Assembly: GCA_963422735.1 (NCBI GenBank)
Contig: OY730476.1
Location: 1,760,001-1,824,000, forward strand
Reading direction: 5' to 3'
DNA from: Candidatus Latescibacterota bacterium
GTDB taxonomy: Bacteria > Latescibacterota > UBA2968 > UBA8231
Length of the DNA: 64,000 bases
Numbering within the stretch: position 1 is the stretch's first letter; the number at the start of each line of letters is the position of its first letter. Below are positions 1 to 50,953 of this stretch, in pieces. The notes under the pieces are model-generated. The model ran no database searches and was not told the DNA's origin. It saw only the letters and a program-made list of their open reading frames with translations. The position numbers and the translations under genes were made by a program.

Positions 1-558
1 ATCGCCTTCGGTCGCGTGGCTGTCGTCGTTTGCAAATCCCCACAGACGTCTTCCCGCGCTCAGCAGCATGTCCCAGCGATTCGTCGCGTAGGGGCTGCCC
101 TCCAAGCGGCTGATCACGCCGTTGTATATCTCCAAGCCCACATAGCCCTCGCAGGTCTGTAAAAGCTCCTGCGGACAATGGTTGAAATTGCCGCGCCAGT
201 TGGGATGGTTAAAAAGAACGAATCCACCACCCGACTCGTTGGCCTTGTCGATTACTTGCTGCCGATCCGCATGCGGCGCGACCCACGCTGCGGCCCCTAC
301 GTGCAAAACGTGCGGGCCGTTGGCTGTAATCTCATTGCCCGGCACCAAGATCATCCCTTGGGCGTCGTATTGCTCGTACTCTTCTAAGGACGTATAGATG
401 TCGTGGTCGGTGATTGACAAGAAGCCGTAGCCGCGGCCCGCGTAGTCGTCGATTACCGCCTGGTGGGTGCGCTCGCCGTCGCTGGCGGTGGTGTGTGCGT
501 GCAGGTTGCCGACTAGCCAGCGTCCTCCGCGCAAATTCTGGTAGGGATGTTCGATCAT
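1..558 (-). CDS. PHP-domain metallohydrolase (CehA/McbA-like), partial, runs off window start
   Basis: Manual translation from ATG at 558: MIEHPYQNLRGGRWLVGNLHAHTTASDG...LSITDHD; PHP motifs HxH..SDG and TDHD; not in ORF track because no stop in window. Confidence 0.8.
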   Translation of the reverse strand, partial: MIEHPYQNLRGGRWLVGNLHAHTTASDGERTHQAVIDDYAGRGYGFLSITDHDIYTSLEEYEQYDAQGMILVPGNEITANGPHVLHVGAAAWVAPHADRQQVIDKANESGGGFVLFNHPNWRGNFNHCPQELLQTCEGYVGLEIYNGVISRLEGSPYATNRWDMLLSAGRRLWGFANDDSHATEGD

Positions 559-640
559 TAAGTTTCTCCTCGGTCGGGAAGCCGCCTCAAAATACGAGAG
601 CACTCTGCGGGTGACAAGGGAAGGGCTCGCCGGGGCAGTG

Positions 641-669
641 TTGACGCGAAAAGTAAGTGGCCCTTTAAT
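641..669 (+). promoter_or_regulatory. Putative sigma70 promoter
   Basis: TTGACG-17 bp-TTTAAT in the divergent intergenic region upstream of the 999-3880 operon. Confidence 0.5.
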
Positions 670-732
670 ACAAGCTTTAAGAACACATAATTCACTGACA
701 TTACGCAGTTTGCCGCCCAATGCGTGGTTTAG

Positions 733-754
733 CCCTGCCGAAGCAGGAGTCCAG
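733..754. repeat. Degenerate REP-like palindrome (GTCATTCCCGCG..GCGGGAATCCA family)
   Basis: CCCTGCCGAAGCAGGAGTCCAG; related to copies at 3965-4124 and 23497. Confidence 0.4.
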
Positions 755-818
755 TGGGAGCCACCCGCACGGACTGGTTCGTCCGCGACAAAGCACTGCG
801 CAACGTCAGTAATTAAAA

Positions 819-992
819 TCGGAATTTCCTAGTTTACGGTTGAGGATTCAGGTCTCATTTATGCGGTTTCACTCGGCCTGCCCGTAGCCCTCGTCCGGGC
901 CAGCGCGGTACCCGGCCAGTCGCCGGGTACCCGCCGCCAAGGGGGCGGATGGGACTAACCCCTAACCACTGACCCCTAACCACTGCTTTAAA
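819..992 (+). mobile_element. MITE copy A (diverged, right TIR missing)
   Basis: TCGGAATTTCCTAG left end, shared GC-rich core, degenerate CCACTAA heptamer tail. Confidence 0.8.
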
Positions 993-998
993 ATCCCG

Positions 999-2153
999 AT
1001 GAAAATCACCGATATTCACACGCTCTCGCTTTCGCGCGCCCACGAGCCTGAGCACCAGTGGTACAGCACCACCTTCCACGTGTCCAAAGCCGACTGCTCG
1101 ATCTGCATCATCGAAACCGACGAGGGCTTGCAGGGCATCGCCGAACCTTGCGCTTACGGTGTACCGCCCGCAATCGCCGCTCGCATCGAAGAGCTCAAGC
1201 CCAGTCTCATCGGCCGCGATCCCCGCGACGAGGACCTGACGCCACACAACGAGGCGGTGCGCACCAACGACATTGCCAATGCCGGCCTCAACTGCGCGCT
1301 GTGGGATTTGCGCGGCAAGATCGCTGGCAAACCCACCGCCGACTTGCTCTGCGCGCCGGGGCAATCCCCCCTGCGCCGCCTCCGCCTTTACGCCTCCTCG
1401 GGCGTGCGCTACGACTGGGACGATCACCCCGAATCCGTTGTCGAAGAGGCAATCGGCTACGCCGAAGACGGCTTCACCGCCTACAAGATGCGCCTAGGCA
1501 CCCACTGGGCTTGGTCGGGCGTCACCGTCGATCGCTTCCTGAAAATAGCGCACCAAGTCCACGAGGCCGTGGGTGAGCGTATGGACTTAGCCCTCGATGG
1601 CAATTGTCGCCTCTCGATGGAGGAGGCGCTGCCCATTGCCGAGGCTCTCGACGAGATGAACTGGGCTTGGTTTGAGGAGCCGATCAAACGCGTACCCGCG
1701 GACTACGCCCGGCTCAACGAGGCCGTCTCCATCCCCATCACCGGCGGCGAGCCTTTTACCACTTGGGCGCAGTTTGAGCCTTTTATGGAGGTGGGAAGCT
1801 TCGGCATCGTCCAGCCCGACGCCGGCGTCTGCGGCATCGACCTCTGCATGGAAGTCGGCCACAAGGCTCACTTCGAGTACGGCGGCATACCCCTGATCCC
1901 GCACAACTGGCACAATGGCCTGATGACGATGGCCAACGCCCACATGGTCGCAGCGCTGCCTGCCCCGCGCCTAGTCGAGCTGAATATGCGGCAGGGTCCC
2001 CTACAGTGGGAGATTCTGCGCGAAAAACCGCTGATCGAAGACGGCCACCTCGTTCTGCCCGATGCCCCGGGCTTCGGAGTCGAATTGGCCGACGACCTCG
2101 AGGCGCGTTTTCCGTACATTGAAGGCTCTTGGGGCAATCCCGTACAACGCTGA
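999..2153 (+). CDS. Mandelate racemase/muconate lactonizing enzyme family (enolase superfamily)
   Basis: ALWDLRGK, KMR, LALDGN, WFEEP, TGGE, QPD, PHNW motifs. Confidence 0.9.
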   Translation: MKITDIHTLSLSRAHEPEHQWYSTTFHVSKADCSICIIETDEGLQGIAEPCAYGVPPAIAARIEELKPSLIGRDPRDEDLTPHNEAVRTNDIANAGLNCALWDLRGKIAGKPTADLLCAPGQSPLRRLRLYASSGVRYDWDDHPESVVEEAIGYAEDGFTAYKMRLGTHWAWSGVTVDRFLKIAHQVHEAVGERMDLALDGNCRLSMEEALPIAEALDEMNWAWFEEPIKRVPADYARLNEAVSIPITGGEPFTTWAQFEPFMEVGSFGIVQPDAGVCGIDLCMEVGHKAHFEYGGIPLIPHNWHNGLMTMANAHMVAALPAPRLVELNMRQGPLQWEILREKPLIEDGHLVLPDAPGFGVELADDLEARFPYIEGSWGNPVQR

Positions 2154-2159
2154 GGACTT

Positions 2160-2993
2160 ATGGTCACCGACCTCGAAAATTATCTCTTCGACCTGCACGG
2201 CTATCTGCGCTTAGAAGGAGCACTTACCGACGACGAGGTCAGAGATCTCAACGATTGCCTCGACGCCGTCCCGCCGCTAGAGCCGGGCGACTGGTACGGC
2301 CATGTCCACGCTCATACCTATGGCGCAGTGGACGGCCTCAACTTGCAGCAAATCTACGAGGCCGGCGAACCTTTTGAGCGGATGATCGACCATCCCGCTT
2401 GGATAGAGAAGGTGAAGCACTTCGTCGGTGGCGAAGGCACGTTCGACTACGCACACGGCCCGCTTTTCATCGACGAAAACTTTGCCAACTTCCGCCAGCC
2501 CGGGGAGGCGATCGGCCTGCATTCCGGCGGCTATCCGCCCATCATGCGCAACCAATTCCGCTACCACGGCGGACGCTACATCTGCGGCCAAATCAACATC
2601 CTCGTAGCGCTCACGGACATCGGTCCGGGCGACGGCGGCACCATGCTGATCCCCGGCAGCCACAAATCCAACTTCGCGCATCCCCACTTAGACCGGCATC
2701 GCATGCGGCCTGAAGGTGCCACCGTTGAGGGCATCGCCGGCGCGGTCGAGTGCCATATGGCCCGAGGCGACGCCCTACTCTTCGTCGATGGCCTTTCTCA
2801 CGGCTCGGCCCGGCGTAAAAACGCGGGCACCCGTCGGATCTTCGTCTATCGCTACGGCCCCTCTTGGGGCAACTTCCGCCACGGCTACCACCCCTCGGAC
2901 GAGTTGTTGGCGCGCCTGAAGCCCGAGCGGAGGCAGATCGTCTGGCCGCAGAGGCCCCGTCCCCAAGGGCCGCAAAGAAAGGCCGTTGAGTAG
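2160..2993 (+). CDS. Phytanoyl-CoA dioxygenase (PhyH) family protein
   Basis: [25 protein letters not shown] motifs. Confidence 0.85.
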
Positions 2994-2998
2994 ATTCT

Positions 2999-3880
2999 AT
3001 GAAGGGCATCATCCTCGCCGGCGGCCAAGGTACTCGCCTCTATCCTTTGACCGTCTCCGTCTCCAAGCAGATCCTGCCGATCTTCGACAAGCCGATGATC
3101 TACTACCCGCTCTCAGTACTCATGCTGGCCGATATCCGCGAGATCCTCATCATCTCCGGCCCGGAGCACATCGACCTCTACCGCCAGCTCTTCGGCGACG
3201 GCGAGCGGCTGGGGCTGAGCATTGAATACGCGGTCCAACCCCGGCCCGAGGGCGTGGCCCACGCCTTTATCGCGGGGGCCGATTTCGCCGGCCGCGACCC
3301 CTGTGCCTTGATATTCGGCGACAACTTCCTCTACGGGCACGGCCTGACCGCCGTTTTGGAGCACGCCAGCCAACTGCGGGAGGGGGGATTGGTCTTCGCT
3401 TACTATGTAAAGGATCCCACGCGCTACGGAGTCGTCGAATTCGACGGGGAGGGCAACGCCATCAGCATTGAGGAGAAGCCGCAAAACCCCAAGTCCAACT
3501 ACGCCGTCATCGGCCTTTATTTTTACGACGGGGAGGTCGTTGACATCGTCCGCGGCCTCAAGCCCTCGGCCCGCGGCGAACTGGAGATTACCGATGCCAA
3601 CAACGAGTACCTGCGCCGCCAGCAACTCAAGGTCAAGGTGTTGGGGCGGGGCTTTGTTTGGCTCGACACCGGCACACACGAGAGCCTCCTAGAGGCCAGC
3701 GACTTCGTCCAAACCATCGAGCACCGGCAGGGGCTTAAAGTGGGCTGCGTCGAGGAAATAGCGTACCGCAAAGGCTACATTGGCGAGGAACAGCTCCTCC
3801 GCGTCGCCAATTACTCCCAAGACAATGCGTATTGCCTCTATCTCAAGCACCTCGTCGAACAGTCCGGGCCGACGTTCTAA
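2999..3880 (+). CDS. rfbA: Glucose-1-phosphate thymidylyltransferase
   Basis: [54 protein letters not shown]. Confidence 0.97.
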
Positions 3881-3964
3881 TAGTCGCCTATTGGCCGAAT
3901 GATTTTCTCCGCACCCCCTTCCAGTTCGTATATATAGGGGGCGATGATGACCACCTTGTCGTTG

Positions 3965-4124
3965 TTGGATTGCCGCTTTCGCGGCAATGACGGAGTGATG
4001 TCCGCCGTTTCTAAGTCGGGCCGCCGCCCTCCCGTCCGTTCCGAAAAACCATCTTTCATTCCTTCGCCCCTTGTCATTCCCTTGCTTAAAGATGCAGGGG
4101 CCGGCTCTGCGGAAGCGGGAATCC
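3965..4124. repeat. Pair of REP-like palindromes
   Basis: TGGATTGCCGCTTTCGCGGCAATGAC (3966-3991) and GTCATTCC[insert]TGCGGAAGCGGGAATCC (4073-4124), approximate reverse complements. Confidence 0.6.
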
Positions 4125-4202
4125 TGTCACTATTGATCTTCCCATAGGGTTGCTTGCTTTACAACGTTGCTCTCAATGCCAATATGGAAAGGTTATAAAC
4201 CA

Positions 4203-4385
4203 ACGGAACTTCCTAGTGTACGGTTGGGGATTCCGGTTTCATGTAGGCGGTTTCACTCGGTATGCCCGTAGCCCTCGTCCGGACCAACGCGGTCCCCCGC
4301 GTCAATGTTCCGGGGCTAGTCGCCGGGTACCCGCCGCCAAGGGGGCGGATGGGACGGACCACTAACCACTAACCACTAACCACTA
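4203..4385 (+). mobile_element. MITE copy B (truncated in heptamer tail)
   Basis: ACGGAACTTCCTAG left TIR, core nearly identical to copy C, CCACTAA x~4, no right TIR. Confidence 0.85.
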
Positions 4386-4824
4386 CTATTTCGCGCAAGG
4401 TTACGCGACGATCCACCGCAGCGGCTTGGCGCAGCTTGGCGAGTGCGTAGTACTCCTCGGGCTGGTCGAAGACTTCCTGATTCACATAGTCGATGTAGCC
4501 CGCCTCGATAGCTTGGGCAGTGAAGTCGTTTTCGCGCACTTCATCGGCAAAGCAGTCGAAGAACACCCCTCGGAGCCAATCTGCTCGTGCTCGATCGTTG
4601 AGAGGAAGCCGTCACCCAAGTGCTCGTAGGTGCCGGCATATACAACCGGCCTTGCGCTCTAAGCCCCAGAAGTAGTGCAGATTGCCCGTCACCCAAGCCG
4701 TCGAGGTCGTCGCACTTGAGGGGGACATGCGCCTCTAAGCGGATATTGGCCCGTCCATTGTCGTCGTCGAAAAATCGCCAACCAGCACTTTCAAGCAACT
4801 GGTCGATTTTACGTTCATTGCCCA
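4386..4824 (-). pseudogene. Fragmented ORF of unknown function downstream of murB
   Basis: Protein-like segments in three different frames (ERKIDQLLESAGWRFF; GTYEHLGDGFLSTIEHE; VFFDCFADEVRE), ending in MITE copy B. Confidence 0.35.
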
Positions 4825-5858
4825 CCCTCCTCCACCAACACCGGCTCTCGCTCCAAACGAATCCCAAAGGTCTGTTCTACCGCGTCCCGAATTTCACTGG
4901 CCAAGTCGAGGACTTCGCGGGTCGTGCCGCCGCGATTTACCAAAGCCAGCGCGTGTCGCTCTGAGATGCCAACCTCGCCCCTTTGCAGCCCCTTGTGAAA
5001 TCCCGCTTGCTCGACGAGCCAAGCGGCGGGAACCTTAACGCCAGCCGAATCGGGAAAGTGCGGGACGCTGGGATAGCGGTCTTTTAATGCGGCAAACGCT
5101 TCGGCGTCAAGGACTGGATTTAAGAAGAAGGAGCCGACGGAGCGCGAGTTGGGGTCTTGCGGATCGATGACCATGGACTTGCGGCGGCGGAGCACGAGCA
5201 CAGCATCTCGCACAGTAGTCAAGGTCGGGCGCGCGTCGTTTACGTGCCGGCCCAACTCCGCGTAGCGGATTTGCGGCTGGCCGTCAGCATCCAAGCGATA
5301 CGTCACCGAGGTCACAATAAAGCGGTCGCGGTCGGCTCCCTTAAAGCGACTCTGGCGGTAGGCAAAGCCGCATTCGGCCGGGGCAAACGCAATTTCCTCC
5401 AAGGTCTGCCGATCGAGTGCCCGCACTTCCACGATGGTGTCTTTTACTTCTTGGCCATACGCGCCTACGTTTTGGATGGGCGTCGCACCCACCGATCCGG
5501 GGATGCCCGAAAGACACTCCACGCCGGCTAGGCCGCGCTCCACGCAGCACTGGACAAAGCCATCCCAATCCTCACCGGCCGCTACCTCAACGGTCGCGCC
5601 GGTAAATGCCATGCCGAGGAGTCCCACTTTGAGCACCAAGCCGCTATAGCCCGCGTCGGCAAAGAGCACGTTGCTGCCGCCACCGAGCACTTGCACGGGC
5701 AGGCCCTCGGCCGCCGCCCAAGTCAAGCAGGCGCGCATCTCGTCTAGGGAGGTGCTCTCGGCCAAGTAGCGCGCGGGGCCGCCGAGGCCCATAGTGGTGA
5801 GAGGGGCGAGTGGGGTATTCTCGCAGAGGATGCAGAGGATGTGGGACGGCTTTTCCAT
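4815..5858 (-). CDS. murB: UDP-N-acetylmuramate dehydrogenase
   Basis: LGGGSNVLF, GIPGSVGATPIQNVGAYG, FAYRQSRFK, SVGSFFLNP, HALALVN, LEREP; start set at MEKP. Confidence 0.96.
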   Translation of the reverse strand: MEKPSHILCILCENTPLAPLTTMGLGGPARYLAESTSLDEMRACLTWAAAEGLPVQVLGGGSNVLFADAGYSGLVLKVGLLGMAFTGATVEVAAGEDWDGFVQCCVERGLAGVECLSGIPGSVGATPIQNVGAYGQEVKDTIVEVRALDRQTLEEIAFAPAECGFAYRQSRFKGADRDRFIVTSVTYRLDADGQPQIRYAELGRHVNDARPTLTTVRDAVLVLRRRKSMVIDPQDPNSRSVGSFFLNPVLDAEAFAALKDRYPSVPHFPDSAGVKVPAAWLVEQAGFHKGLQRGEVGISERHALALVNRGGTTREVLDLASEIRDAVEQTFGIRLEREPVLVEEGGQ

Positions 5859-5953
5859 GAAGTGACGCCTCGTTTCGCACGTAGTGAGCATTTGCGTTGC
5901 ACTGCCTATATTACAGAATATAGGGTGCATACCGCACACCGCCGGAGCCTACG

Positions 5954-6424
5954 ATGGGAAAGACCCTCTATCTCGCCAGCCCTTATGGATTCTCGCCGCA
6001 TTGGAAGGAGCGGCTCCTGCCCCAGTTCGTCTCTGCATTAGAGGGATTGGGGGCTGAGGTTTGGGAGCCTTTTGCCCGCAACAATCAAGTTGACTTTTCC
6101 AAGCCGGGCTGGGCCTATACGGTTGGCCAAGCCGATCTGCGCGACGTGGTCGCGGCCGACGCGATCTTCGCCATTGTCAACGGGACGCCCCCGGACGAGG
6201 GGGTGATGGTCGAATTGGGGGCGGCCATTGCCCTCGGCAAGCCGACCTTTCTCTTTCGCGACGACTTCCGTCGCTGCACGGACTCAGAGAACTACCCCCT
6301 AAACCTGATGCTGTTCACCGGCCTGCCGGAAAATAGCTGGGAAGCGTACTACTACACATCGCTCGCGGAAATTAGCGCGCCCGACAAGGCCCTAGCGCGC
6401 TGGCTGCGGGACGAACTGAGCTGA
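5954..6424 (+). CDS. Nucleoside 2-deoxyribosyltransferase family
   Basis: LYLASP, DEGVMVELGAA, NLML motifs. Confidence 0.88.
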   Translation: MGKTLYLASPYGFSPHWKERLLPQFVSALEGLGAEVWEPFARNNQVDFSKPGWAYTVGQADLRDVVAADAIFAIVNGTPPDEGVMVELGAAIALGKPTFLFRDDFRRCTDSENYPLNLMLFTGLPENSWEAYYYTSLAEISAPDKALARWLRDELS

Positions 6425-6428
6425 CATA

Positions 6429-7730
6429 ATGCGCACAGCCATTCCCCCCCATCTGCTGCAAGACCCGGAGATTGAACTGTCCGAAAAGGTCTTGCGCTCC
6501 TGCGTTCACTGCGGCTTTTGCAATGCCACCTGCCCCACCTACCTGCTCACCGGCAACGAACTCGAAGGGCCGCGCGGCCGCATTTACCTCATCAAAAGCA
6601 TTCTCGAAGAGAGCATCCCTCCGAGCCAGCAGACGGTCGAACACATCGACAACTGCCTCGGCTGCCTCGCGTGCGAAACTACCTGCCCGAGCGGTGTGGA
6701 TTATTCGCTCCTCTTGGAAACGGCCCGGCCGCGGCTGGATCAGCTCGTCAAGCGGCCTTTAGCCGACCGCCTGCTGCGCGCCTTGCTGACGCGGATGCTG
6801 CCCTATCCCGGCCGCACGCGCTTGGCGCTCAAAATGTCTGGGGTGGGGCGCGTGTTCTCCGGCCTTATGCCCCGTGCCATGCGGCCGCTGTTGGCGATGG
6901 CCCCCAAGCGGTTGCCGCCGCCAGCCGTTGTAGCTCGGCCCGGGGTCGTGCCGGCCGAGGGTACGCCGCGGCTGCGCGTGGCCCTGCTCACCGGGTGCGT
7001 CCAACAGGTGTTAGGGCCGCAGATCAACGACGCGACCGTGCGGCTGCTGACGCGGTTGGGGGTCGAGGTGGTCATTCCGCCGGATATGGGCTGTTGCGGT
7101 GCGCTGACCTTTCACATGGGCGAGCGCCAGCACAGCCGCAAGCTAATGCAGCGCGCCATTGCGGTTTGGCATCGCGAGCTGGAAGCGGGCTTGGACGCGA
7201 TTGTGCTCAACACGTCGGGATGCGGCACGGCAATCAAAGAATACGATCACATCTTTCGCCACGATCCGCAGTGGGCGGACAAAGCCAAGGCGGTAGTGGA
7301 GCGGGTGCGGGACGTTTCCGAGGTGGTGGCGCAATTGGGATTGGGTGCGGCCAATCACGCGCCGGCCCTGAAGGTGGCTTATCACGACGCCTGTTCGCTC
7401 CAACACGGCCTGCACGTCACCGAGCCGCCAAGGCAACTGTTGAAAGCGGCGGGCTTCGAGGTCGTCGAGGTGCCCGAAGGTCATATATGCTGCGGCAGCG
7501 CGGGCACGTACAACATGCTGCGCCCACACTTGGCGCAGAAGCTGCAAGCGCGCAAAGCCGCGCACATCGCCAGCGTTGCGCCGCAGATTGTGGCTGCGGG
7601 CAACATTGGCTGCATGGAACAAATCGCCGGTCGTGTCGAAGTGCCAGTCGTCCACACCGTCGAGCTGTTGGATTGGGCGACGGGTGGCCCGCGGCCGGCG
7701 CAGGTGCCGCTAGAAACTGCCAAGCGATAG
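6429..7730 (+). CDS. glcF: Glycolate oxidase iron-sulfur subunit
   Basis: CVHCGFCNATCPTY, CLGCLACETTCPSGV, two CCG domains, AAGNIGC, HTVELLDWATGG. Confidence 0.93.
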   Translation: MRTAIPPHLLQDPEIELSEKVLRSCVHCGFCNATCPTYLLTGNELEGPRGRIYLIKSILEESIPPSQQTVEHIDNCLGCLACETTCPSGVDYSLLLETARPRLDQLVKRPLADRLLRALLTRMLPYPGRTRLALKMSGVGRVFSGLMPRAMRPLLAMAPKRLPPPAVVARPGVVPAEGTPRLRVALLTGCVQQVLGPQINDATVRLLTRLGVEVVIPPDMGCCGALTFHMGERQHSRKLMQRAIAVWHRELEAGLDAIVLNTSGCGTAIKEYDHIFRHDPQWADKAKAVVERVRDVSEVVAQLGLGAANHAPALKVAYHDACSLQHGLHVTEPPRQLLKAAGFEVVEVPEGHICCGSAGTYNMLRPHLAQKLQARKAAHIASVAPQIVAAGNIGCMEQIAGRVEVPVVHTVELLDWATGGPRPAQVPLETAKR

Positions 7731-7754
7731 ACGAATTTGCCTTTCCAAATGTTC

Positions 7755-7833
7755 TTAGAAGTGGTCTGCTTCACCGCGCCGGTCCGGGTGAAGCAGGCGC
7801 GACAGGCCGAGAGGGATTGCAGACCGCTTCTAA
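7755..7833. repeat. 79-bp mini-element bounded by 15-bp inverted repeats
   Basis: TTAGAAGTGGTCTGC ... GCAGACCGCTTCTAA (14/15), internal hairpin CTGCTTCACC/GGTGAAGCAG. Confidence 0.55.
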
Positions 7834-8020
7834 AATCCAAACGAGGAATCTCTGCCCATGCGCTCCATACTATGCGCCTTGATATGCTCGACCCGGCTTA
7901 CTTCTCATTCTGACGCTAACCCGGAAGGATTGGCGTTTGTAAAGATAGACGGCAAATTCGGGTTCACTGATCCGCCGGGAGGCTACGATTGAGCAACATG
8001 GCAACACCAAGGCTGAGCCG

Positions 8021-8100
8021 TTGCCCGCGTGGAAAAAGGCCAGCGGCTATCATCGCCGCTGGCTAGCCGAAACCCAGATCGGCCGCTACAAACAAATGCT
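8021..8100 (+). pseudogene. IS5-family (IS903-like) transposase C-terminal remnant
   Basis: WKKASGYHRRWLAETQIGRYKQ resembles the WK..SGYH.RS..ET...R.KQ motif of IS903-type transposases. Confidence 0.65.
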
Positions 8101-8202
8101 TGTTGACCATGATATTTCGGTGATTTTAGTCGAGTCACTGAGTCAAATGCTCTGGACGTTGGGCCAGCTAAAGCGCGTTGCAGGCCAGAACAGGTTTATG
8201 AG

Positions 8203-8409
8203 ACGGAATTTCCTAGTGTACGGTTGGGAATTCCGGTTTCATGTAGGCGGTATCACTCGGCTAGCCCGTAGCCCTCGTCCGGGCCAGCGCGGTCCCCCGC
8301 GTCAATGTTCCGGGGCCCGTCGCCGGGTACCCGCCGCCAAGGGGGCGGATGGGACGGACCACTAACCACTAACCACTGATTAAACAGTCCTTATTCTAGG
8401 AAAGTCCGT
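8203..8409 (+). mobile_element. MITE copy C (complete, 207 bp)
   Basis: TIRs ACGGAATTTCCTAG / CTAGGAAAGTCCGT (13/14), perfect 6-bp TSD TATGAG at 8197-8202 and 8410-8415. Confidence 0.93.
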
Positions 8410-8415
8410 TATGAG

Positions 8416-9570
8416 ATGACTTTTAGGCCATTTCTTCTTCTCGCTATTTTATGCAGCATCTTCCTCGTGTTTCCCAATGCATGTAACGGCGAAGATCCTA
8501 TGAGTAGTCCAGATAAAGACCAAATAGATTCACCATATACCATAGGCGTCTATTATTATCCCTGGTACAGCGGTGATTTTCACGGTGGCCACTATATGCG
8601 CAAAGAGCTGGTACCGCCGCAGTTGCCCATGCTCGGCGAGTACGACGATCGCAATTCCGCTGTGATCGCCCAGCATCTCAAGTGGAGCCGACAGGCCAAT
8701 ATATCGCTGTGGGTAGCGAGTTGGTGGGGTCCCGATTCTCGTGAAGATCAGACTCTGCTACAGCACATTCTGCCGCACGATGAATTAGGTGATATGCAGA
8801 TTGCGCTGTTTTATGAGACTACAGGGCGCACAAGGGAGTTTTCAGCGTTCAACCATGTCGCACCGGACATAGCCCATATTGCCGAACGCTATTTCAACTA
8901 TCCCAATTATCTGCGGATCGATGGACGTCCGGTGCTCTTTGTCTATTTGACGCGAGTACTCTCGCGCAATGGGGTGCTGGCTGAGGTGGTGGAGGCGATG
9001 CGCGTAACGGCCAGAGATGCGGGATACGATATATACATCGTCGGCGATGAGGTCTTTGGACAACCGCCGACGTCTTATGAGGCTATTGGGCTATTGGATG
9101 CCGTGACGAATTACGACGTGTACGGCAGTATGGGAGCGAAGGGTTATGCGGGACAGGCGGCAGTAGATCGGTATTATGCGGCGCAGGCAGGTTGGCGGGA
9201 ACTGGCTCATGCTGAAGAGACAGCGTTTATACCCGCTGCGACACCAGGATTTAACGACAAAGGTGTGCGCAATGGACATGAGGCTGTCTCGCGGAAGTTG
9301 AGCGAGGAAGCCGAATTTGGATCGCTACTTCGGGCGATGCTGGCACAGGCTGTAAAATATACGGATGAATCAACGGGGCGAATGCTGATGGTTACTTCGT
9401 GGAACGAGTGGCACGAGGATACACAGATTGAGCCGGTTGAAAAGGGGGAAGTGACTCGGTTGGATGGTAGCGAGACGGGGAAGGCGTTTAGTGAGGGATT
9501 GGATTACGAGGGATATGGGGAGCGGTATTTGGAAATATTAAGGGAGATTAGCTCGGAGGCAAAACTGTGA
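8416..9570 (+). CDS. Secreted GH99-like glycoside hydrolase (endo-alpha-mannosidase-like)
   Basis: Signal peptide, YYYPWY, SWWG, IDGRPVLFVY, PGFND, TSWNEWHEDTQIEP catalytic EWHE motif. Confidence 0.85.
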   Translation: MTFRPFLLLAILCSIFLVFPNACNGEDPMSSPDKDQIDSPYTIGVYYYPWYSGDFHGGHYMRKELVPPQLPMLGEYDDRNSAVIAQHLKWSRQANISLWVASWWGPDSREDQTLLQHILPHDELGDMQIALFYETTGRTREFSAFNHVAPDIAHIAERYFNYPNYLRIDGRPVLFVYLTRVLSRNGVLAEVVEAMRVTARDAGYDIYIVGDEVFGQPPTSYEAIGLLDAVTNYDVYGSMGAKGYAGQAAVDRYYAAQAGWRELAHAEETAFIPAATPGFNDKGVRNGHEAVSRKLSEEAEFGSLLRAMLAQAVKYTDESTGRMLMVTSWNEWHEDTQIEPVEKGEVTRLDGSETGKAFSEGLDYEGYGERYLEILREISSEAKL

Positions 9571-9929
9571 ACATACATCGTATCACCGCGATGGTGCCAA
9601 TAACCGATTTGGCTCAAGCGATAACCTTCTACTCGCAAAGGCTAGGTCTTCAAGTCGTCCGCCATAGAGACGAGTAGGGCCATGCCGTGCTGGAAGGCGA
9701 ACAGGGTTGCCAAGTGATGATAGACCGCTCGATACGCACGGAATCGAACGCCTCCACCGTCGTTTACTACTATACGTCCGATGTTGAAACGGTACGAGAC
9801 CGCGTGATTGCCGCTGGTCTCGTACCTGCTCCTATCGGCGTAACCTTCTACGGCATGACAGAGTTTCGAGTTCTCGATCTCGATTGAAATGAGGTCTGGG
9901 TCGGTGCAAGTGAGGCTCCCGCCACCTAA
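9567..9929 (+). pseudogene. VOC/glyoxalase family pseudogene
   Basis: MNIHRITAMVPITDLAQAITFYSQRLG...YGMTEFRVLDLD*NEVWVG; in-frame TAG 9675 and TGA 9885 (the latter at the G of DPDGN-like motif). Confidence 0.8.
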
Positions 9930-9964
9930 CAAGTCACTACCGTTGACTACCCAATCAGATTGAT

Positions 9965-10966
9965 ATGAACTGCATACACGAAACCAACCGTCGGCTGTGG
10001 AATAGTCAGGCCGCTATCTGGAAAGAACGAAGCAATCGAGAAGGTAGGTGGCACCGATGCCATAAAGATCCCGATTTGGCGTTTGAAGGTGGCGCTCTCC
10101 AACTGATTCAGACGGTTTCTAACGGATTAAGCAACAAAAGAGTATGCGTTATCGGCAGCGGCGATAATATAGCAGCGTCCGCCCTTGCAGGCTTGGGCGC
10201 GCAAGTTACATCGACGGACATTTCGGAAGAGCAATTAGCAACGGGGGCACGTAGAGCTGAGCAGCTTGGTCTGTCGATCTCGTTCGTTCGCTCGGATGCC
10301 GCCTGCCAAGAATCGCTGGCCGATTCGAGCTTTGACCTCGTATGCTCAACCAACGGCTTCTTTGTGTGGATCGCCGATCTCGAAGCGGTTTTCTGTGACG
10401 GAATTTCCTAGTGTACGGTTGGGAATTCCGGTTTCATGTAGGCGGTATCACTCGGCTGGCCCGTAGCCCTCGTCCGAGCCCGCGCGGTCCCCCGCGTCAA
10501 TGTTCCGGGGCGGTACCCGTCGCCAAGGGAGCGGATGGAACTAACCACTAACCACTAACCACTGATTAAACAGTCCTTATTCTAGGAAAGTCTGTTCGGT
10601 GAAGTAGCGCGCATTCTAAAACCCGGTGGCTCTTATGTGTATTTCGATGTCCACCCCTTTCAGCGACCTTGGAAGGAGCAGGCGATGCCACTTGCAATGG
10701 AAAAACCATATTGGTCCACAGGGCCGTTTCAGTCGCAAGATCGAGACTCTTATGAATTCAACTGGACTTTGGCTGACCTTTTGAACTCAATGGCTGCGGC
10801 GGGACTCATGTTAGTCAAGATCTTGGAGAGGCCGGCCCGCGACACCCGGTATTGTCAGGGGTCTTCTCATTGCGATGTCGTTGACGACACCTTATTGGAA
10901 TGGGGTGAAAATCCCCGGGCGGGACTCCCCATATGGTTGGCGGTTGCGGCGCGCAAGACAGTTTAG
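9965..10966 (+). pseudogene. Class I SAM methyltransferase interrupted by MITE
   Basis: VCVIGSGD, TDISEEQL, SFDLV; removing MITE plus one TSD restores EAVFGEVARILKPGGSYVYFDVHPF in frame. Confidence 0.9.
10398..10595 (+). mobile_element. MITE copy D (complete, 198 bp)
   Basis: Both TIRs; TSD TCTGTG/TCGGTG (5/6); inserted inside methyltransferase gene. Confidence 0.92.
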
Positions 10967-47614: not shown

Positions 47615-48586
47615 TCAGTTGTCCCACATCAGCAATACCGCCATGGTCTCGCCCAACCGGTTGTAGAGCAGATCAAAGGCTGTTGCCGCTTTGGTGTAGG
47701 GGAAGCGGTGGGTGATCATCTTGGCGAACTGGATCTGGTCCGTAGCCAACAGTTCTAGGGCACGTGCCGATCCTGCGGGCCGCCGGTCGGCGTTGAGGTA
47801 GCTACCCACGAGGCGCTTGCCCATGATTTTTTCTGAGTAGAGCGGCAGGGGTTCGTCTTCGTATAGGCCCAGCACCTGCAAGAGGCCGCCGCGCTTGAGC
47901 ATGTCCTGCGCTTCGGCAAACGCCTGCGCCCCGGCCCGCCCGCCCACGGCTTCGACCACTACGTCGGCACCCTCCTCGTCCGTCAGTTCCAAAACCTGTG
48001 CGACAGAGTCGCCGGCACTGGCGTCTATCACCGCGTCGGCCCCCAACTTGCGCGCCAGCTCGCAGCGCAAGGGCAAGGTATCGATCCCAATGACGCGCCC
48101 CGCGCCCTGTGCCTTGGCCGCCTGCATACAACCGCTACCGACCAAGCCTTGCCCCTGTATGACCACGACATCGTCCGGGCCGGCTTCGGTCTCCCACATC
48201 CACAGGACCGAACTCGTGCCCAGCGGCCAGAAGGTGCCCGCCTCGGGCGACAGACCCATTGGCAGGCACACGGCCGCCGGTTTGTGCTGGCTGGCTACGA
48301 CTTCGACCGCCACGTATTCGGCGTGCGGCGCGAGGGCCGCGACTAGATCGCCGGTTTTGAACTCTTCGACCTCCGCGCCCACTTCTTCGACCCGGCCCAC
48401 TAGCGAGTAGCCCATGGCGCGATGATCAATCGCCTCCTCGCGCACGTAGCGACGCCAAATCTCCGAGCCTCGGCTGATTAGCGAACATTGGGCGCGAATC
48501 AAAATCTCGGTCGGGGCAAGAGCCGGAACCTCGACCTCTTCTACTGCGATATTGTAGGCCCCTGAGGGCTTGGCGATGCGTTTCAT
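47615..48586 (-). CDS. MDR superfamily (zinc-binding-like) dehydrogenase
   Basis: SLISRGSE, MGYS..G.V, GQGLVG, ADVVVEAVG, MITHRFP; GAGGAGG RBS. Confidence 0.86.
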   Translation of the reverse strand: MKRIAKPSGAYNIAVEEVEVPALAPTEILIRAQCSLISRGSEIWRRYVREEAIDHRAMGYSLVGRVEEVGAEVEEFKTGDLVAALAPHAEYVAVEVVASQHKPAAVCLPMGLSPEAGTFWPLGTSSVLWMWETEAGPDDVVVIQGQGLVGSGCMQAAKAQGAGRVIGIDTLPLRCELARKLGADAVIDASAGDSVAQVLELTDEEGADVVVEAVGGRAGAQAFAEAQDMLKRGGLLQVLGLYEDEPLPLYSEKIMGKRLVGSYLNADRRPAGSARALELLATDQIQFAKMITHRFPYTKAATAFDLLYNRLGETMAVLLMWDN

Positions 48587-48653
48587 AGACGGCCTCCTCG
48601 CGGACAATATGGCAAAAATACCGCGTGGGAACCAACCTAAGGGAAGCACTAAC

Positions 48654-48693
48654 AAAAAAACCGGGCGCACCCACTAAGGTGGGGTACGCCCGG
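48654..48693 (-). terminator. Intrinsic terminator
   Basis: Minus strand CCGGGCGTACCCCAC-CTTA-GTGGGTGCGCCCGG followed by T7. Confidence 0.85.
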
Positions 48694-48953
48694 CTGTACT
48701 CTCAGAAGCTATGTCGCCGAGGCGACAATGCTCCTGACCAGGTAGTCGATCACCTGGAGTTGATCAAGTGATCAACCTCCTTGCGGTACAATTACTACTC
48801 AATGGACCACCTCCTTTCGCTTGTGCGCGCCTCATATCCATACTCCAACTCTGCGCGTCGTTGCGGCCAATTACAAAGCCGGGCTGGCTCGCTCGCGTAG
48901 CCTCGAGCCTCAGCGTGGCGGCAACAGAGGCTTTAGGCCCCTGAACCCGTCTT
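48654..48953 (-). ncRNA. Candidate structured small RNA / mini-ORF transcript with extended Shine-Dalgarno repeats
   Basis: Bounded by promoter and terminator, no ORF over ~25 codons recognised, several hairpins, AAAGGAGGTGGTCCA and AAGGAGGTTGATC motifs; 5' end estimated from promoter. Confidence 0.65.
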
Positions 48954-48959
48954 GAGTTT

Positions 48960-49003
48960 AATATGACAAACGCCCAAGAACCATGTCAAATGCTTTTTAT
49001 TTT
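48960..49003 (-). promoter_or_regulatory. Strong sigma70-type promoter
   Basis: A-rich UP-like AAAATAAAAA, TTGACA (48989-48984), 18-bp spacer, TGn-CATATT (48965-48960). Confidence 0.7.

Positions 49004-49021: not shown

Positions 49022-50953
<1,932 letters not shown>

Follow-up and report, generated by a model that had tools for sequence, protein, structure and literature searches.

What is a stand-alone RNA of about 300 nt doing with a complement to the entire free 3' tail of 16S ribosomal RNA (rRNA)? The question is raised by a locus at positions 48953-48654, minus strand, of a 64,000-nt stretch of Candidatus Latescibacterota bacterium DNA (contig OY730476.1, positions 1,760,001 to 1,824,000; hereafter the window). 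The original prediction, made from the letters alone, had proposed a structured RNA bearing three long Shine-Dalgarno (SD) motifs, either an undescribed ribosome-binding RNA or a small-peptide locus. The observation behind that prediction proved to be real and unusual, and its interpretation is partly supported. The locus is a separate transcription unit with its own promoter and terminator and a covarying structure, and from its anatomy we are highly confident that it is an RNA that engages ribosomes through a mini-open reading frame (mini-ORF). That the RNA docks and holds ribosomes, a function and a binding that we infer from its sequence features, is a reading we put forward tentatively. 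The features that bear on both statements are the following.

48818-48803, minus strand: SD1, GAAAGGAGGTGGTCCA, complementary to the whole single-stranded 3' tail of 16S rRNA
48802-48764, minus strand: the mini-ORF, with a UUG start (48802-48800), 11 further sense codons (peptide MSSNCTARRLIT) and a UGA stop (48766-48764)
48782-48770, minus strand: SD2, AAGGAGGTTGATC, inside the ORF, its GGAGG core (48780-48776) lying 9 nt ahead of the stop
48781-48740, minus strand: hairpin B, with a 5' arm (48777-48765), an 8-nt loop, a 3' arm (CAGGTGATCGACT, 48756-48744) and three outer pairs

The 3' end of the single 16S gene of this genome reads ...GCGGCTGGATCACCTCCTTTCT (over a longer stretch, ...GGATCACCTCCTTTCT). 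Sixteen uninterrupted base pairs, a single G-U among them, are therefore possible between this end and GAAAGGAGGTGGTCCA, which bears out on the genome's own rRNA the long complement that had been claimed. The predicted SD1/16S duplex has an energy of -30.0 kcal/mol, compared with -9.2 to -11.6 kcal/mol for SDs of 6-8 nt. When the GGAGG sites of the 4.95-Mb genome, 10,499 over the two strands, were ranked, SD1 was the longest complement of the 16S tail after the 16S antisense itself, tied with one G-U-rich site. The window holds two copies of AAGGAGGT, both inside the RNA; this count is not above chance (2 observed, 1.41 expected), and it is their spacing of 34 nt that is notable. SD1 is also the most conserved feature throughout an entire bacterial family: its 13-mer GAAAGGAGGTGGT is exact in 63 of the 64 homologous loci examined (45 listed loci and 19 members of the genus), with a single substitution in the remaining locus, L063, so that the extended SD is conserved as the prediction had it. 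The SD1 segment AGGUGGUC is complementary to internal segments of the type GACCACCU, which may explain why position 12 of SD1 is a G and not the A of a perfect match to the 16S tail. The prediction had listed three motifs, AAAGGAGGTGGTCCA (48817-48803), AAGGAGGTTGATC (48782-48770) and AGGTGATC (48755-48748), as repeated complements of the 16S 3' end. All three lie at those positions on the minus strand, but they are not equivalent sites for 30S, as the second is a GGAGG within the ORF, 9-10 nt before the stop, with its 3' part forming the 5' arm of hairpin B, and the third is the 3' arm of that hairpin.

In the window RNA the UUG start comes 7 nt after SD1 and opens an ORF of 12 codons. A start codon (UUG, GUG or AUG) 6-11 nt past GGAGG, followed by an in-frame ORF of 9-13 codons, was identified in all 63 loci that were analyzed by script, and reading L063 by eye revealed a 12-codon ORF there as well, giving start and ORF in 64/64 loci. 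The distance from SD1 to the start is 6-8 nt in 52 of 56 distinct sequences. Among the loci there are nine combinations of start offset and stop offset and every one is in frame, an outcome with a chance of about (1/3)^8 if frame were irrelevant. Weak initiators dominate the 41 distinct ORFs (UUG 27, GUG 8, AUG 6). The stop keeps the same structural place and is mostly TGA; L080, L082, L086, L088 and L095 have TAA or TAG instead, and these are retained although each breaks one base pair of the hairpin. Two ideas about the stop codon were considered and rejected: a reading of UGA specific to release factor RF2 or to selenocysteine, since TAA and TAG occur at the same place, and termination-reinitiation at a start overlapping the stop (UUGA), which holds in the window genus only.

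The peptides encoded by these ORFs vary, for example MSSNCTARRLIT in the window genome and MSSTSTTGRWIT, MSSIPIRRSTT, MSSCIPAGGATT, MESTGRSIT and MKHTTIRRWTA elsewhere. Column entropy, averaged over the last seven sense codons of the 41 distinct ORFs, is 0.89 at codon position 1, 0.57 at position 2 and 0.49 at position 3. Variability is thus lowest at the third position, whereas purifying selection on a protein would produce the reverse. Furthermore, genera differ in how the invariant GGAGGU within the ORF is read, some having AGG-AGG-U and others GGA-GGU. These two properties together lead us to conclude that the peptide carries no sign of selection. AGT is found as codon 2 in 29 of the 41 ORFs and as codon 3 in 28, and the AGU-AGU pair is not present in all genera. 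Consequently, of the suggestion that this is a small-peptide locus, the start codon and the 9-13-codon ORF stand in all 64 loci while the selected peptide does not, and a peptide locus in the usual sense appears unlikely. What is conserved, therefore, is the ability of a ribosome to start and stop, rather than the peptide made; judged from these comparisons, the signature is clearly one of selection for ribosome transit, with an ORF selected for being open and closed.

SD2 is fixed in position relative to the stop. Its GGAGG core is present in 54 of the 56 distinct sequences, the distance from SD2 to the stop is 9 nt in 46 of the 56 and 10 nt in the other 10, and its predicted duplex with the 16S tail has an energy of -17.9 kcal/mol. 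When the stop codon occupies the A site, 6-7 nt thus separate SD2 from the last sense codon, and this spacing equals that between SD1 and the start codon. The end of the ORF is also one side of a stem, as the 5' arm of hairpin B consists of the final 11 nt of the ORF and the UG of the stop (predicted energy -22.4 kcal/mol). In 33 distinct arm pairs, 9-13 of the 13 gapless pairs can form, with compensatory changes such as GGUGGGUCGUCUG/CAGACGGCCCACC and a 3' arm of CAGGUGAUCGACU. In the covariance model described below hairpin B is helix 5, in which 7 of 16 pairs are changed on both sides and 94.6% of cells are paired. The remaining structural elements of the RNA are as follows.

48953-48860, minus strand: 5' structured domain, comprising hairpin P1 and a junction with GGCUCG/CGAGCC and CCCGGCUUUGU/GCGCAGAGUUGG helices (RNAalifold)
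48859-48825, minus strand: hairpin H0, helix 1 of model R1, with all 6 of 6 pairs changing on both sides and 95% of cells paired
48824-48819, minus strand: A-rich single-stranded linker between H0 and SD1
48757-48738, minus strand: alternative hairpin C, CCAGGTG/TACCTGG, read from the sequence and mutually exclusive with hairpin B
48737-48702, minus strand: hairpin D (UCAGGAGC...GCUUCUGA, with an inner GUCGCC/GGCGAC stem), helices 6 and 7, with 13/13 pairs changed on both sides

A 312-nt stretch containing these elements folds far better than shuffled versions of itself (z = -5.0, none of 100 shuffles being as good). For 23 sequences of the genus RNAalifold gave a consensus of 86 pairs, four with a compensatory change. 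We built a covariance model, R1, on the central 166 positions, and when 43 sequences, 41 of them distinct, were aligned by fitting to the model, 91.5% of cells could pair, compared with 75.2% after shuffling of columns (none of 500 shuffles reached the observed value) and 35-45% for slid partners; a compensatory change was identified in 32 of 47 pairs. Hairpin C would form when the 3' arm of hairpin B pairs with the (C/U)ACCUGG that follows it; it is without covariation support because both of its arms are nearly invariant. Among the pairings that the prediction had drawn in the 5' half, GGCTCG/CGAGCC is part of the consensus fold, with one pair compensated in six sequences, and CTCTG/CAGAG and GTTGC/GCAAC are not used. 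The 5' domain differs in length between genera. A possible antiterminator pairing between GCCCGGC of the 5' domain and the terminator arm was discarded as it had no covariation.

The RNA has its own signals for initiation and termination of transcription.

49010-48990, minus strand: A-rich UP-like tract, identified from the sequence and conserved in the genus alignment
48989-48984, minus strand: -35 hexamer TTGACA, identified by promoter scan, its TTGAC conserved in the genus alignment
48968-48960, minus strand: extended -10 element TGtCATATT (-10 box at 48965-48960), identified by promoter scan, 18 nt from the -35 hexamer
48694-48654, minus strand: intrinsic terminator, a long G+C-rich hairpin (48694-48661) followed by U7 (48660-48654), identified by folding

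The promoter agrees with the consensus at 10 of 12 positions, has the extended TG and is the sole promoter-like site that the scan found within 1 kb, so the A tract and the TTGACA-18-TGnCATATT promoter are present as originally read. The strong terminator was likewise borne out, by folding; a scan with a consensus terminator detected none at the locus. Among 63 distinct homologues, TTGNNN-17/18-TANNNT was matched in 38, at 77-197 nt 5' of the SD, by a regular expression that leaves out the CATATT variants of the window genus, and a hairpin with a T run is present in 57.

The start of the RNA is predicted near 48953, and contigs assembled from metatranscriptomes extend to that position. These data were four runs taken as Logan contigs, not as raw reads, and in all four the contigs cover the RNA and end near its predicted ends. 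The summed word depth over 48674-48945 was 3,248-535,660 in run X17, 165-10,841 in X19, 174 in X15 and 76 in X16, whereas that of the two flanking genes was 0-45; the resulting ratios range from about 5-fold (in the weakest run, relative to the better-covered flank) to more than 1,000-fold. Run X17 contributed 216 matching pieces of contig, 121 of them at 99% identity or higher. The contigs support the RNA being discrete and very abundant, the depths not being quantitative. In two of the four runs there is a depth peak, 10-60-fold over 48810-48877 relative to the part with the ORF and hairpins; on the minus strand this segment lies immediately 5' of SD1 and includes it. The peak could have arisen from processing, ribosome protection or library bias.

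Homologues of the RNA are found in the class to which the genome belongs. By BLASTN, 22 of the 24 remaining genus members carry the 312 nt, with identities of 82-96%, and model R1 has exactly one match per genome in 71 of the 132 genomes of the class (family f1 67/75, f3 2/3, f4 1/22, f2 0/31). The same model had no match in 36 genomes from ten further families of the phylum. A core sequence pattern occurs once per genome in 69 of the 132 genomes, compared with 11 matches for a reversed control pattern. When the whole window was compared with Rfam 15, no family reached its gathering threshold, in agreement with the prediction of a structured RNA of about 300 nt outside Rfam, and we conclude that this is a new family-wide structured RNA absent from that release. 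Our literature search, the scope of which did not extend to the small RNA (sRNA) lists in supplements, turned up no description of it. The identities of transfer-messenger RNA (tmRNA), RNase P RNA and signal recognition particle (SRP) RNA, which the prediction had already set aside, are rejected, as none matches at the locus and all three are found above threshold elsewhere in the genome, tmRNA being at 1831251-1831609 with 202.5 bits, about 7 kb past the end of the window. For 6S RNA there was no match genome-wide at E <= 0.01 with a model that matches only 5 of 14 control genomes, so that a divergent 6S RNA may lie elsewhere; this identity was rejected for the window RNA, whose consensus fold is multi-branched with a 3' terminator and is not 6S-like. 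Several GGA motifs prompted us to consider a CsrA-type sponge, for which the csrA gene was not searched for and which would not explain the conserved ORF.

RNAs of similar design occur in other phyla. A pattern of SD1, a 14-36-nt gap, GGAGGT, 8-9 nt and a stop-like triplet matched at least 120 loci in species-representative genomes. Among the matches listed, 113 of 120 have a start codon 6-11 nt past GGAGG and an ORF of 9-15 codons ending exactly at the stop of the pattern, and the other seven look like chance. In those loci, at least 113 in number, the starts are GTG (52), TTG (48) and ATG (13) and the stops TAG (107), TAA (3) and TGA (3). The 80 matches listed with titles mostly have labels of an Actinomycetota type (Gaiellales, Thermoleophilia), and the other labels among those listed are Latescibacterota, Eisenbacteria, Planctomycetota, Chloroflexota, Poribacteria and Gemmatimonadota (examples in the set L097-L216 are L099:5184-5244, L101:3234-3285, L104:1089-1152, L148:2514-2571 and L173:714-776). 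In the Actinomycetota type the peptides are of the form xxSSTGSGGTSG, TAG predominates as the stop and SD1 is preceded by a -10 box at a distance of about 10-20 nt. The end of the ORF and the stop form the 5' strand of a long-range helix closing a 3' domain of about 110 nt, and the downstream genes that were checked are convergent. Comparison of ten loci of these cross-phylum RNAs with Rfam gave no match to the RNAs themselves; the two features that did match, a tRNA and a TPP riboswitch, lie in another part of a single locus.

A permissive Rfam search led to one known family, the orphan sRNA CC2171 (RF01867), which the window RNA matches at 25.3 bits relative to a threshold of 75 (E 0.0024 in a 651-nt search and 0.0044 in the whole genome). 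The match is carried by the first 27 positions (posterior probability '*') and the terminator; the multi-hairpin body of CC2171 with its 7-bp closing stem aligns at low posterior probability (2-6) with many mismatched pairs. A second match in the genome, of 16.6 bits, was dropped as it lies in apparent coding sequence. The head of CC2171 is GAAAGGAGGUGAUCCA followed by GUG and that of the window RNA GAAAGGAGGUGGUCCA followed by UUG, so that both have GAAAGGAGGUG(A/G)UCCA and then directly a start codon, and both are independent small transcripts with hairpins and a terminator. They are unlike in that the window RNA has a 5' domain of about 135 nt whereas the CC2171 model starts 8 nt before the SD, in that the window RNA has a shorter ORF, the SD2-to-stop geometry and hairpin B, and in that CC2171 is alphaproteobacterial and the window RNA comes from another phylum. 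A search of metagenome contigs with the 19-nt consensus head of CC2171 returned at least 120 loci (set L217-L336, e.g., L219:460-631, L220:235-405, L226:409-578 and L227:2922-3106). Among the matches listed, 106 loci have sufficient flank, and in 105 of them the GUG is the start of an ORF of 12-31 codons. Four of ten such loci tested pass the Rfam threshold, and those carry ORFs of 22-28 codons. In four groups of these ORFs, formed by length and each mixing subfamilies, the three codon positions are about equally variable. In bona fide CC2171 RNAs, which Rfam lists as a plain sRNA, the ORF begins MSH(C/S) directly past the extended SD. Other sequences with the same head, of the MSYTKRCHLAGIAR and MTYSPTVICEVVPS types, matched no Rfam family. 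CC2171 was seen by Northern blot in Methylorubrum, in a preprint whose account gives its function and the condition affecting it as not known (10.1101/2022.01.24.477521). The window RNA is an RNA of the CC2171 kind and would resemble minigene RNAs in mechanism. The description of the RNA as undescribed is thus qualified: it holds as far as Rfam families at threshold are concerned, but an orphan family shares its head.

How might such an RNA act? In the reading that we favor, a 30S subunit would dock on SD1 in a duplex spanning the entire single-stranded 16S tail to its terminal nucleotides. Over-long SDs slow ribosome clearance, and the combination of such an SD with a weak start codon would favor long residence over output. 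Ribosomes that do elongate would unzip hairpin B and be recaptured by SD2 at the stop codon, and the in-frame stop would release ribosomes without rescue. The net effect would be ribosomes held or cycled and free 30S and 70S titrated, so that the product that matters would be ribosome occupancy. The 16S 3' end may also be shielded, and it is at this single-stranded end that RNase R is described as first attacking during 30S degradation (PMC10901742). A further step, doubtful at present, is that the RNA is a counterpart of the hibernation and protection factors, with two docking stations of the same geometry, at the start and at the stop of the mini-ORF, that buffers free subunits and shields the 16S 3' end, which would also explain the cross-phylum RNAs and CC2171.

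Several points weigh against docking and holding as the role of the RNA. Binding of ribosomes to it and its translation are both deduced, and a maximal SD with a conserved ORF would also be expected of a highly expressed peptide gene or of a translation-gated switch. In the single-sequence fold much of the SD1 core is paired with the 5' domain, with an unpaired probability of about 0-0.4 over GGAGGUGGUCC, and a weak helix connects GUGGU with ACCRC within the ORF; with its core partly paired, docking at SD1 may be regulated, not constitutive. The RNA was not found in family f2 (0/31) or in most of f4 (1/22) and is thus dispensable in relatives. HPF (PF02482), a protein hibernation factor, occurs alongside the RNA and also where the RNA is missing (f1 66/75, f2 29/31, f4 20/22, f3 3/3), so the two are not complementary in distribution and the idea that the RNA replaces a missing hibernation protein is rejected. 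Lastly, the pairing counts given above lean toward structure, coming as they do from an alignment fitted to the model, and the Logan word depths, in which relatives are added together, reflect expression poorly.

The rival that survives best, although we regard it as rather unlikely, is a translation-gated riboregulator or sensor, whose mini-ORF would read translation capacity or the availability of ribosomes: transit of a ribosome would open hairpin B, hairpin C would form, and an activity of the RNA would be switched, either target pairing via its SD-like and anti-SD-like strands or its own decay. The mutual exclusivity of hairpins B and C, the location of the ORF end and stop inside hairpin B (in the Actinomycetota type, in the long-range helix closing the 3' domain), the alternative pairings allowed between AGGUGGUC of SD1 and the internal GACCACCU and the selection of the ORF but not of the peptide are all as such a switch would have them. 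However, no conserved single-stranded seed or target was identified, hairpin C lacks covariation support, the parts beyond the module of SD, ORF and hairpin differ between genera, and the RNA has no cis target. Leader-peptide attenuators (ermC, trpL/rnTrpL) are similar in that translation of a short SD-led ORF rearranges alternative hairpins, and their terminated transcript can persist as an sRNA (PMC6614838). Unlike them, the window RNA has no regulated downstream gene and no regulatory codon run, and its terminator is outside the alternative pairings.

Less probable again, and in our judgment improbable, is that the ribosome serves as a stabilizer, with a 30S bound at SD1 or a briefly translating ribosome protecting an RNA that functions through its structured domains. 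The precedent is the STAB-SD of cry3A from Bacillus thuringiensis, which also pairs in SD-like fashion with the 16S 3' end and is described as binding 30S without directing translation (PMC4113751). The high apparent abundance of the window RNA would fit, as would the position of the SD near the 5' end, about 8-18 nt from the -10 box, in the Actinomycetota-type and CC2171-type RNAs. In the window RNA, however, about 135 nt precede SD1, and a 30S bound there could not shield them from attack at the 5' end. It is also the module of SD, ORF and hairpin that is conserved across genera, while the flanking domains vary in sequence and length, and the fixed geometry from SD2 to stop would not be needed. 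The STAB-SD, as described, is without a start or ORF and lies in the 5' untranslated region of a long mRNA; the window RNA has no downstream cistron and has a conserved start, ORF, second SD and stop, the start and in-frame ORF being kept in all loci.

We consider it very unlikely that the locus is a gene for a small peptide, in which the 12-residue MSSNCTARRLIT would be the functional product and SD1 a device for high expression. An ORF in all loci with a strong SD at the correct spacing is what such a gene would have, and the peptides of the Actinomycetota type are alike (xxSSTGSGGTSG), with Cys, Ser, Thr and Gly being frequent. To the low variability of the third codon position and the reading of GGAGGU in two frames must be added, on the other side, that most substitutions among genus members are non-synonymous and radical (C/R, R/G, N/K/T), that length ranges over 9-13 residues, that non-AUG starts predominate and that no neighboring genes are conserved.

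A CreT-like minigene, with a mini-ORF of repeated rare codons that sequesters tRNA, or ribosomes as a toxin, has scarcely any likelihood in our assessment. The list of parts is the same, as CreT is described as a small RNA whose activity requires a start codon behind a strong SD, a mini-ORF only a few codons long and a stable stem-loop, and as one in which the act of translation matters and not the peptide (PMC8501985); all four parts are present here, and in most family members AGU-AGU directly follows the start. The described CreT (haloarchaea, Acinetobacter, Pseudomonas) is, however, a toxin repressed by a CRISPR-derived CreA guide beside cas genes (PMC8501985), and among the neighbors of the window RNA within about 2.5 kb there are no cas genes or CRISPR-like repeat. 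According to the same source CreT requires AUG and consecutive rare codons, whereas here 35 of 41 distinct ORFs begin with UUG or GUG and there is no universal rare-codon pair, the double AGU being absent from several genera (e.g., MESTGRSIT, MQSTTRRWVV). In addition, there is one copy of the RNA per genome, its inheritance is vertical, in keeping with the family tree, and its promoter is close to consensus. Comparison with tmRNA, which acts on the ribosome and is likewise abundant, of housekeeping type and equipped with a short ORF, ends at the tRNA-like domain of tmRNA and its lack of an SD or start codon.

The last rival concerns the genes on either side of the RNA, both on the same strand as the RNA itself, which sits between the stop of one and the start of the other.

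49022-50944, minus strand: methionyl-tRNA synthetase gene, metG (PF09334), upstream of the RNA
start at 48586, minus strand: Zn-dehydrogenase gene (PF00107), 70 nt downstream of the RNA

Within about 2.5 kb of the RNA there are, in addition to these two, genes for a TIM-barrel protein, a Vgb-lyase-like protein (below the Pfam cut-off) and PhyH. The upstream gene differs among loci, encoding the methionyl-tRNA synthetase in some and a GFO/IDH/MocA oxidoreductase in others, and in at least eight loci of other genera the downstream gene is convergent (e.g., a sigma-54 response regulator or a response regulator-cyclase), so that there is no cis target. A conserved gene neighborhood was rejected beyond closely related genera, as neighbors differ between genera; clustering of the flanking ORFs covered one third of loci. 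Between the terminator and the dehydrogenase start (48586) we observed a promoter-like TTGGTT-17 nt-CATATT (48607-48635, minus strand), conserved throughout the genus alignment, which suggests that the Zn-dehydrogenase gene is transcribed separately from the RNA. That the RNA is a cis-acting leader or attenuator of this gene is barely credible: the same dehydrogenase gene does follow on the same strand in the window genus and one neighboring genus, and the layout of leader ORF, alternative hairpins and terminator does resemble that of attenuators, but hairpin D lies in the roughly 70 nt that separate the stop from the terminator, a search for an antiterminator pairing gave none, the gene has its own conserved promoter-like element, the downstream genes of other loci are convergent, and the depth of the RNA is far above that of the downstream gene in most runs.

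If docking and holding is the true role, abundant RNAs of a class widespread in bacteria have escaped notice through their likeness to very short mRNAs, and RNA would join the control of ribosome availability and storage, so far known as the work of proteins (HPF, RMF, RaiA). It would also supply the first functional hypothesis for CC2171, an Rfam family listed without a function, and one that is testable in cultivable CC2171 hosts such as Caulobacter and Methylorubrum.

Two further loci of the genome, outside the window, have long SDs. The first, AGAAAGGAGGTGATAC (genome positions approximately 408,900-409,044, minus strand), has 14 pairs with the 16S tail and is followed, 6 nt past GGAGG, by a 2-codon ORF (TTG TCG TAG) and, about 60 nt on, by an anti-SD-like CAGCACCTCCGC; it is upstream of a gene whose product begins MKVLIKTAIGLTALVASF and may be a leader of related design. 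The second, AGAAAGGAGGTGATGA (from genome position 3781135, plus strand), also has 14 pairs with the 16S tail and lies ahead of a 38-residue ORF rich in Gly, Ser and Lys (MAKAHSGGSSKGSGGWPSKTGNLSGGGRENAPPKGKGK), by which it appears to be a small protein gene with an extreme SD.

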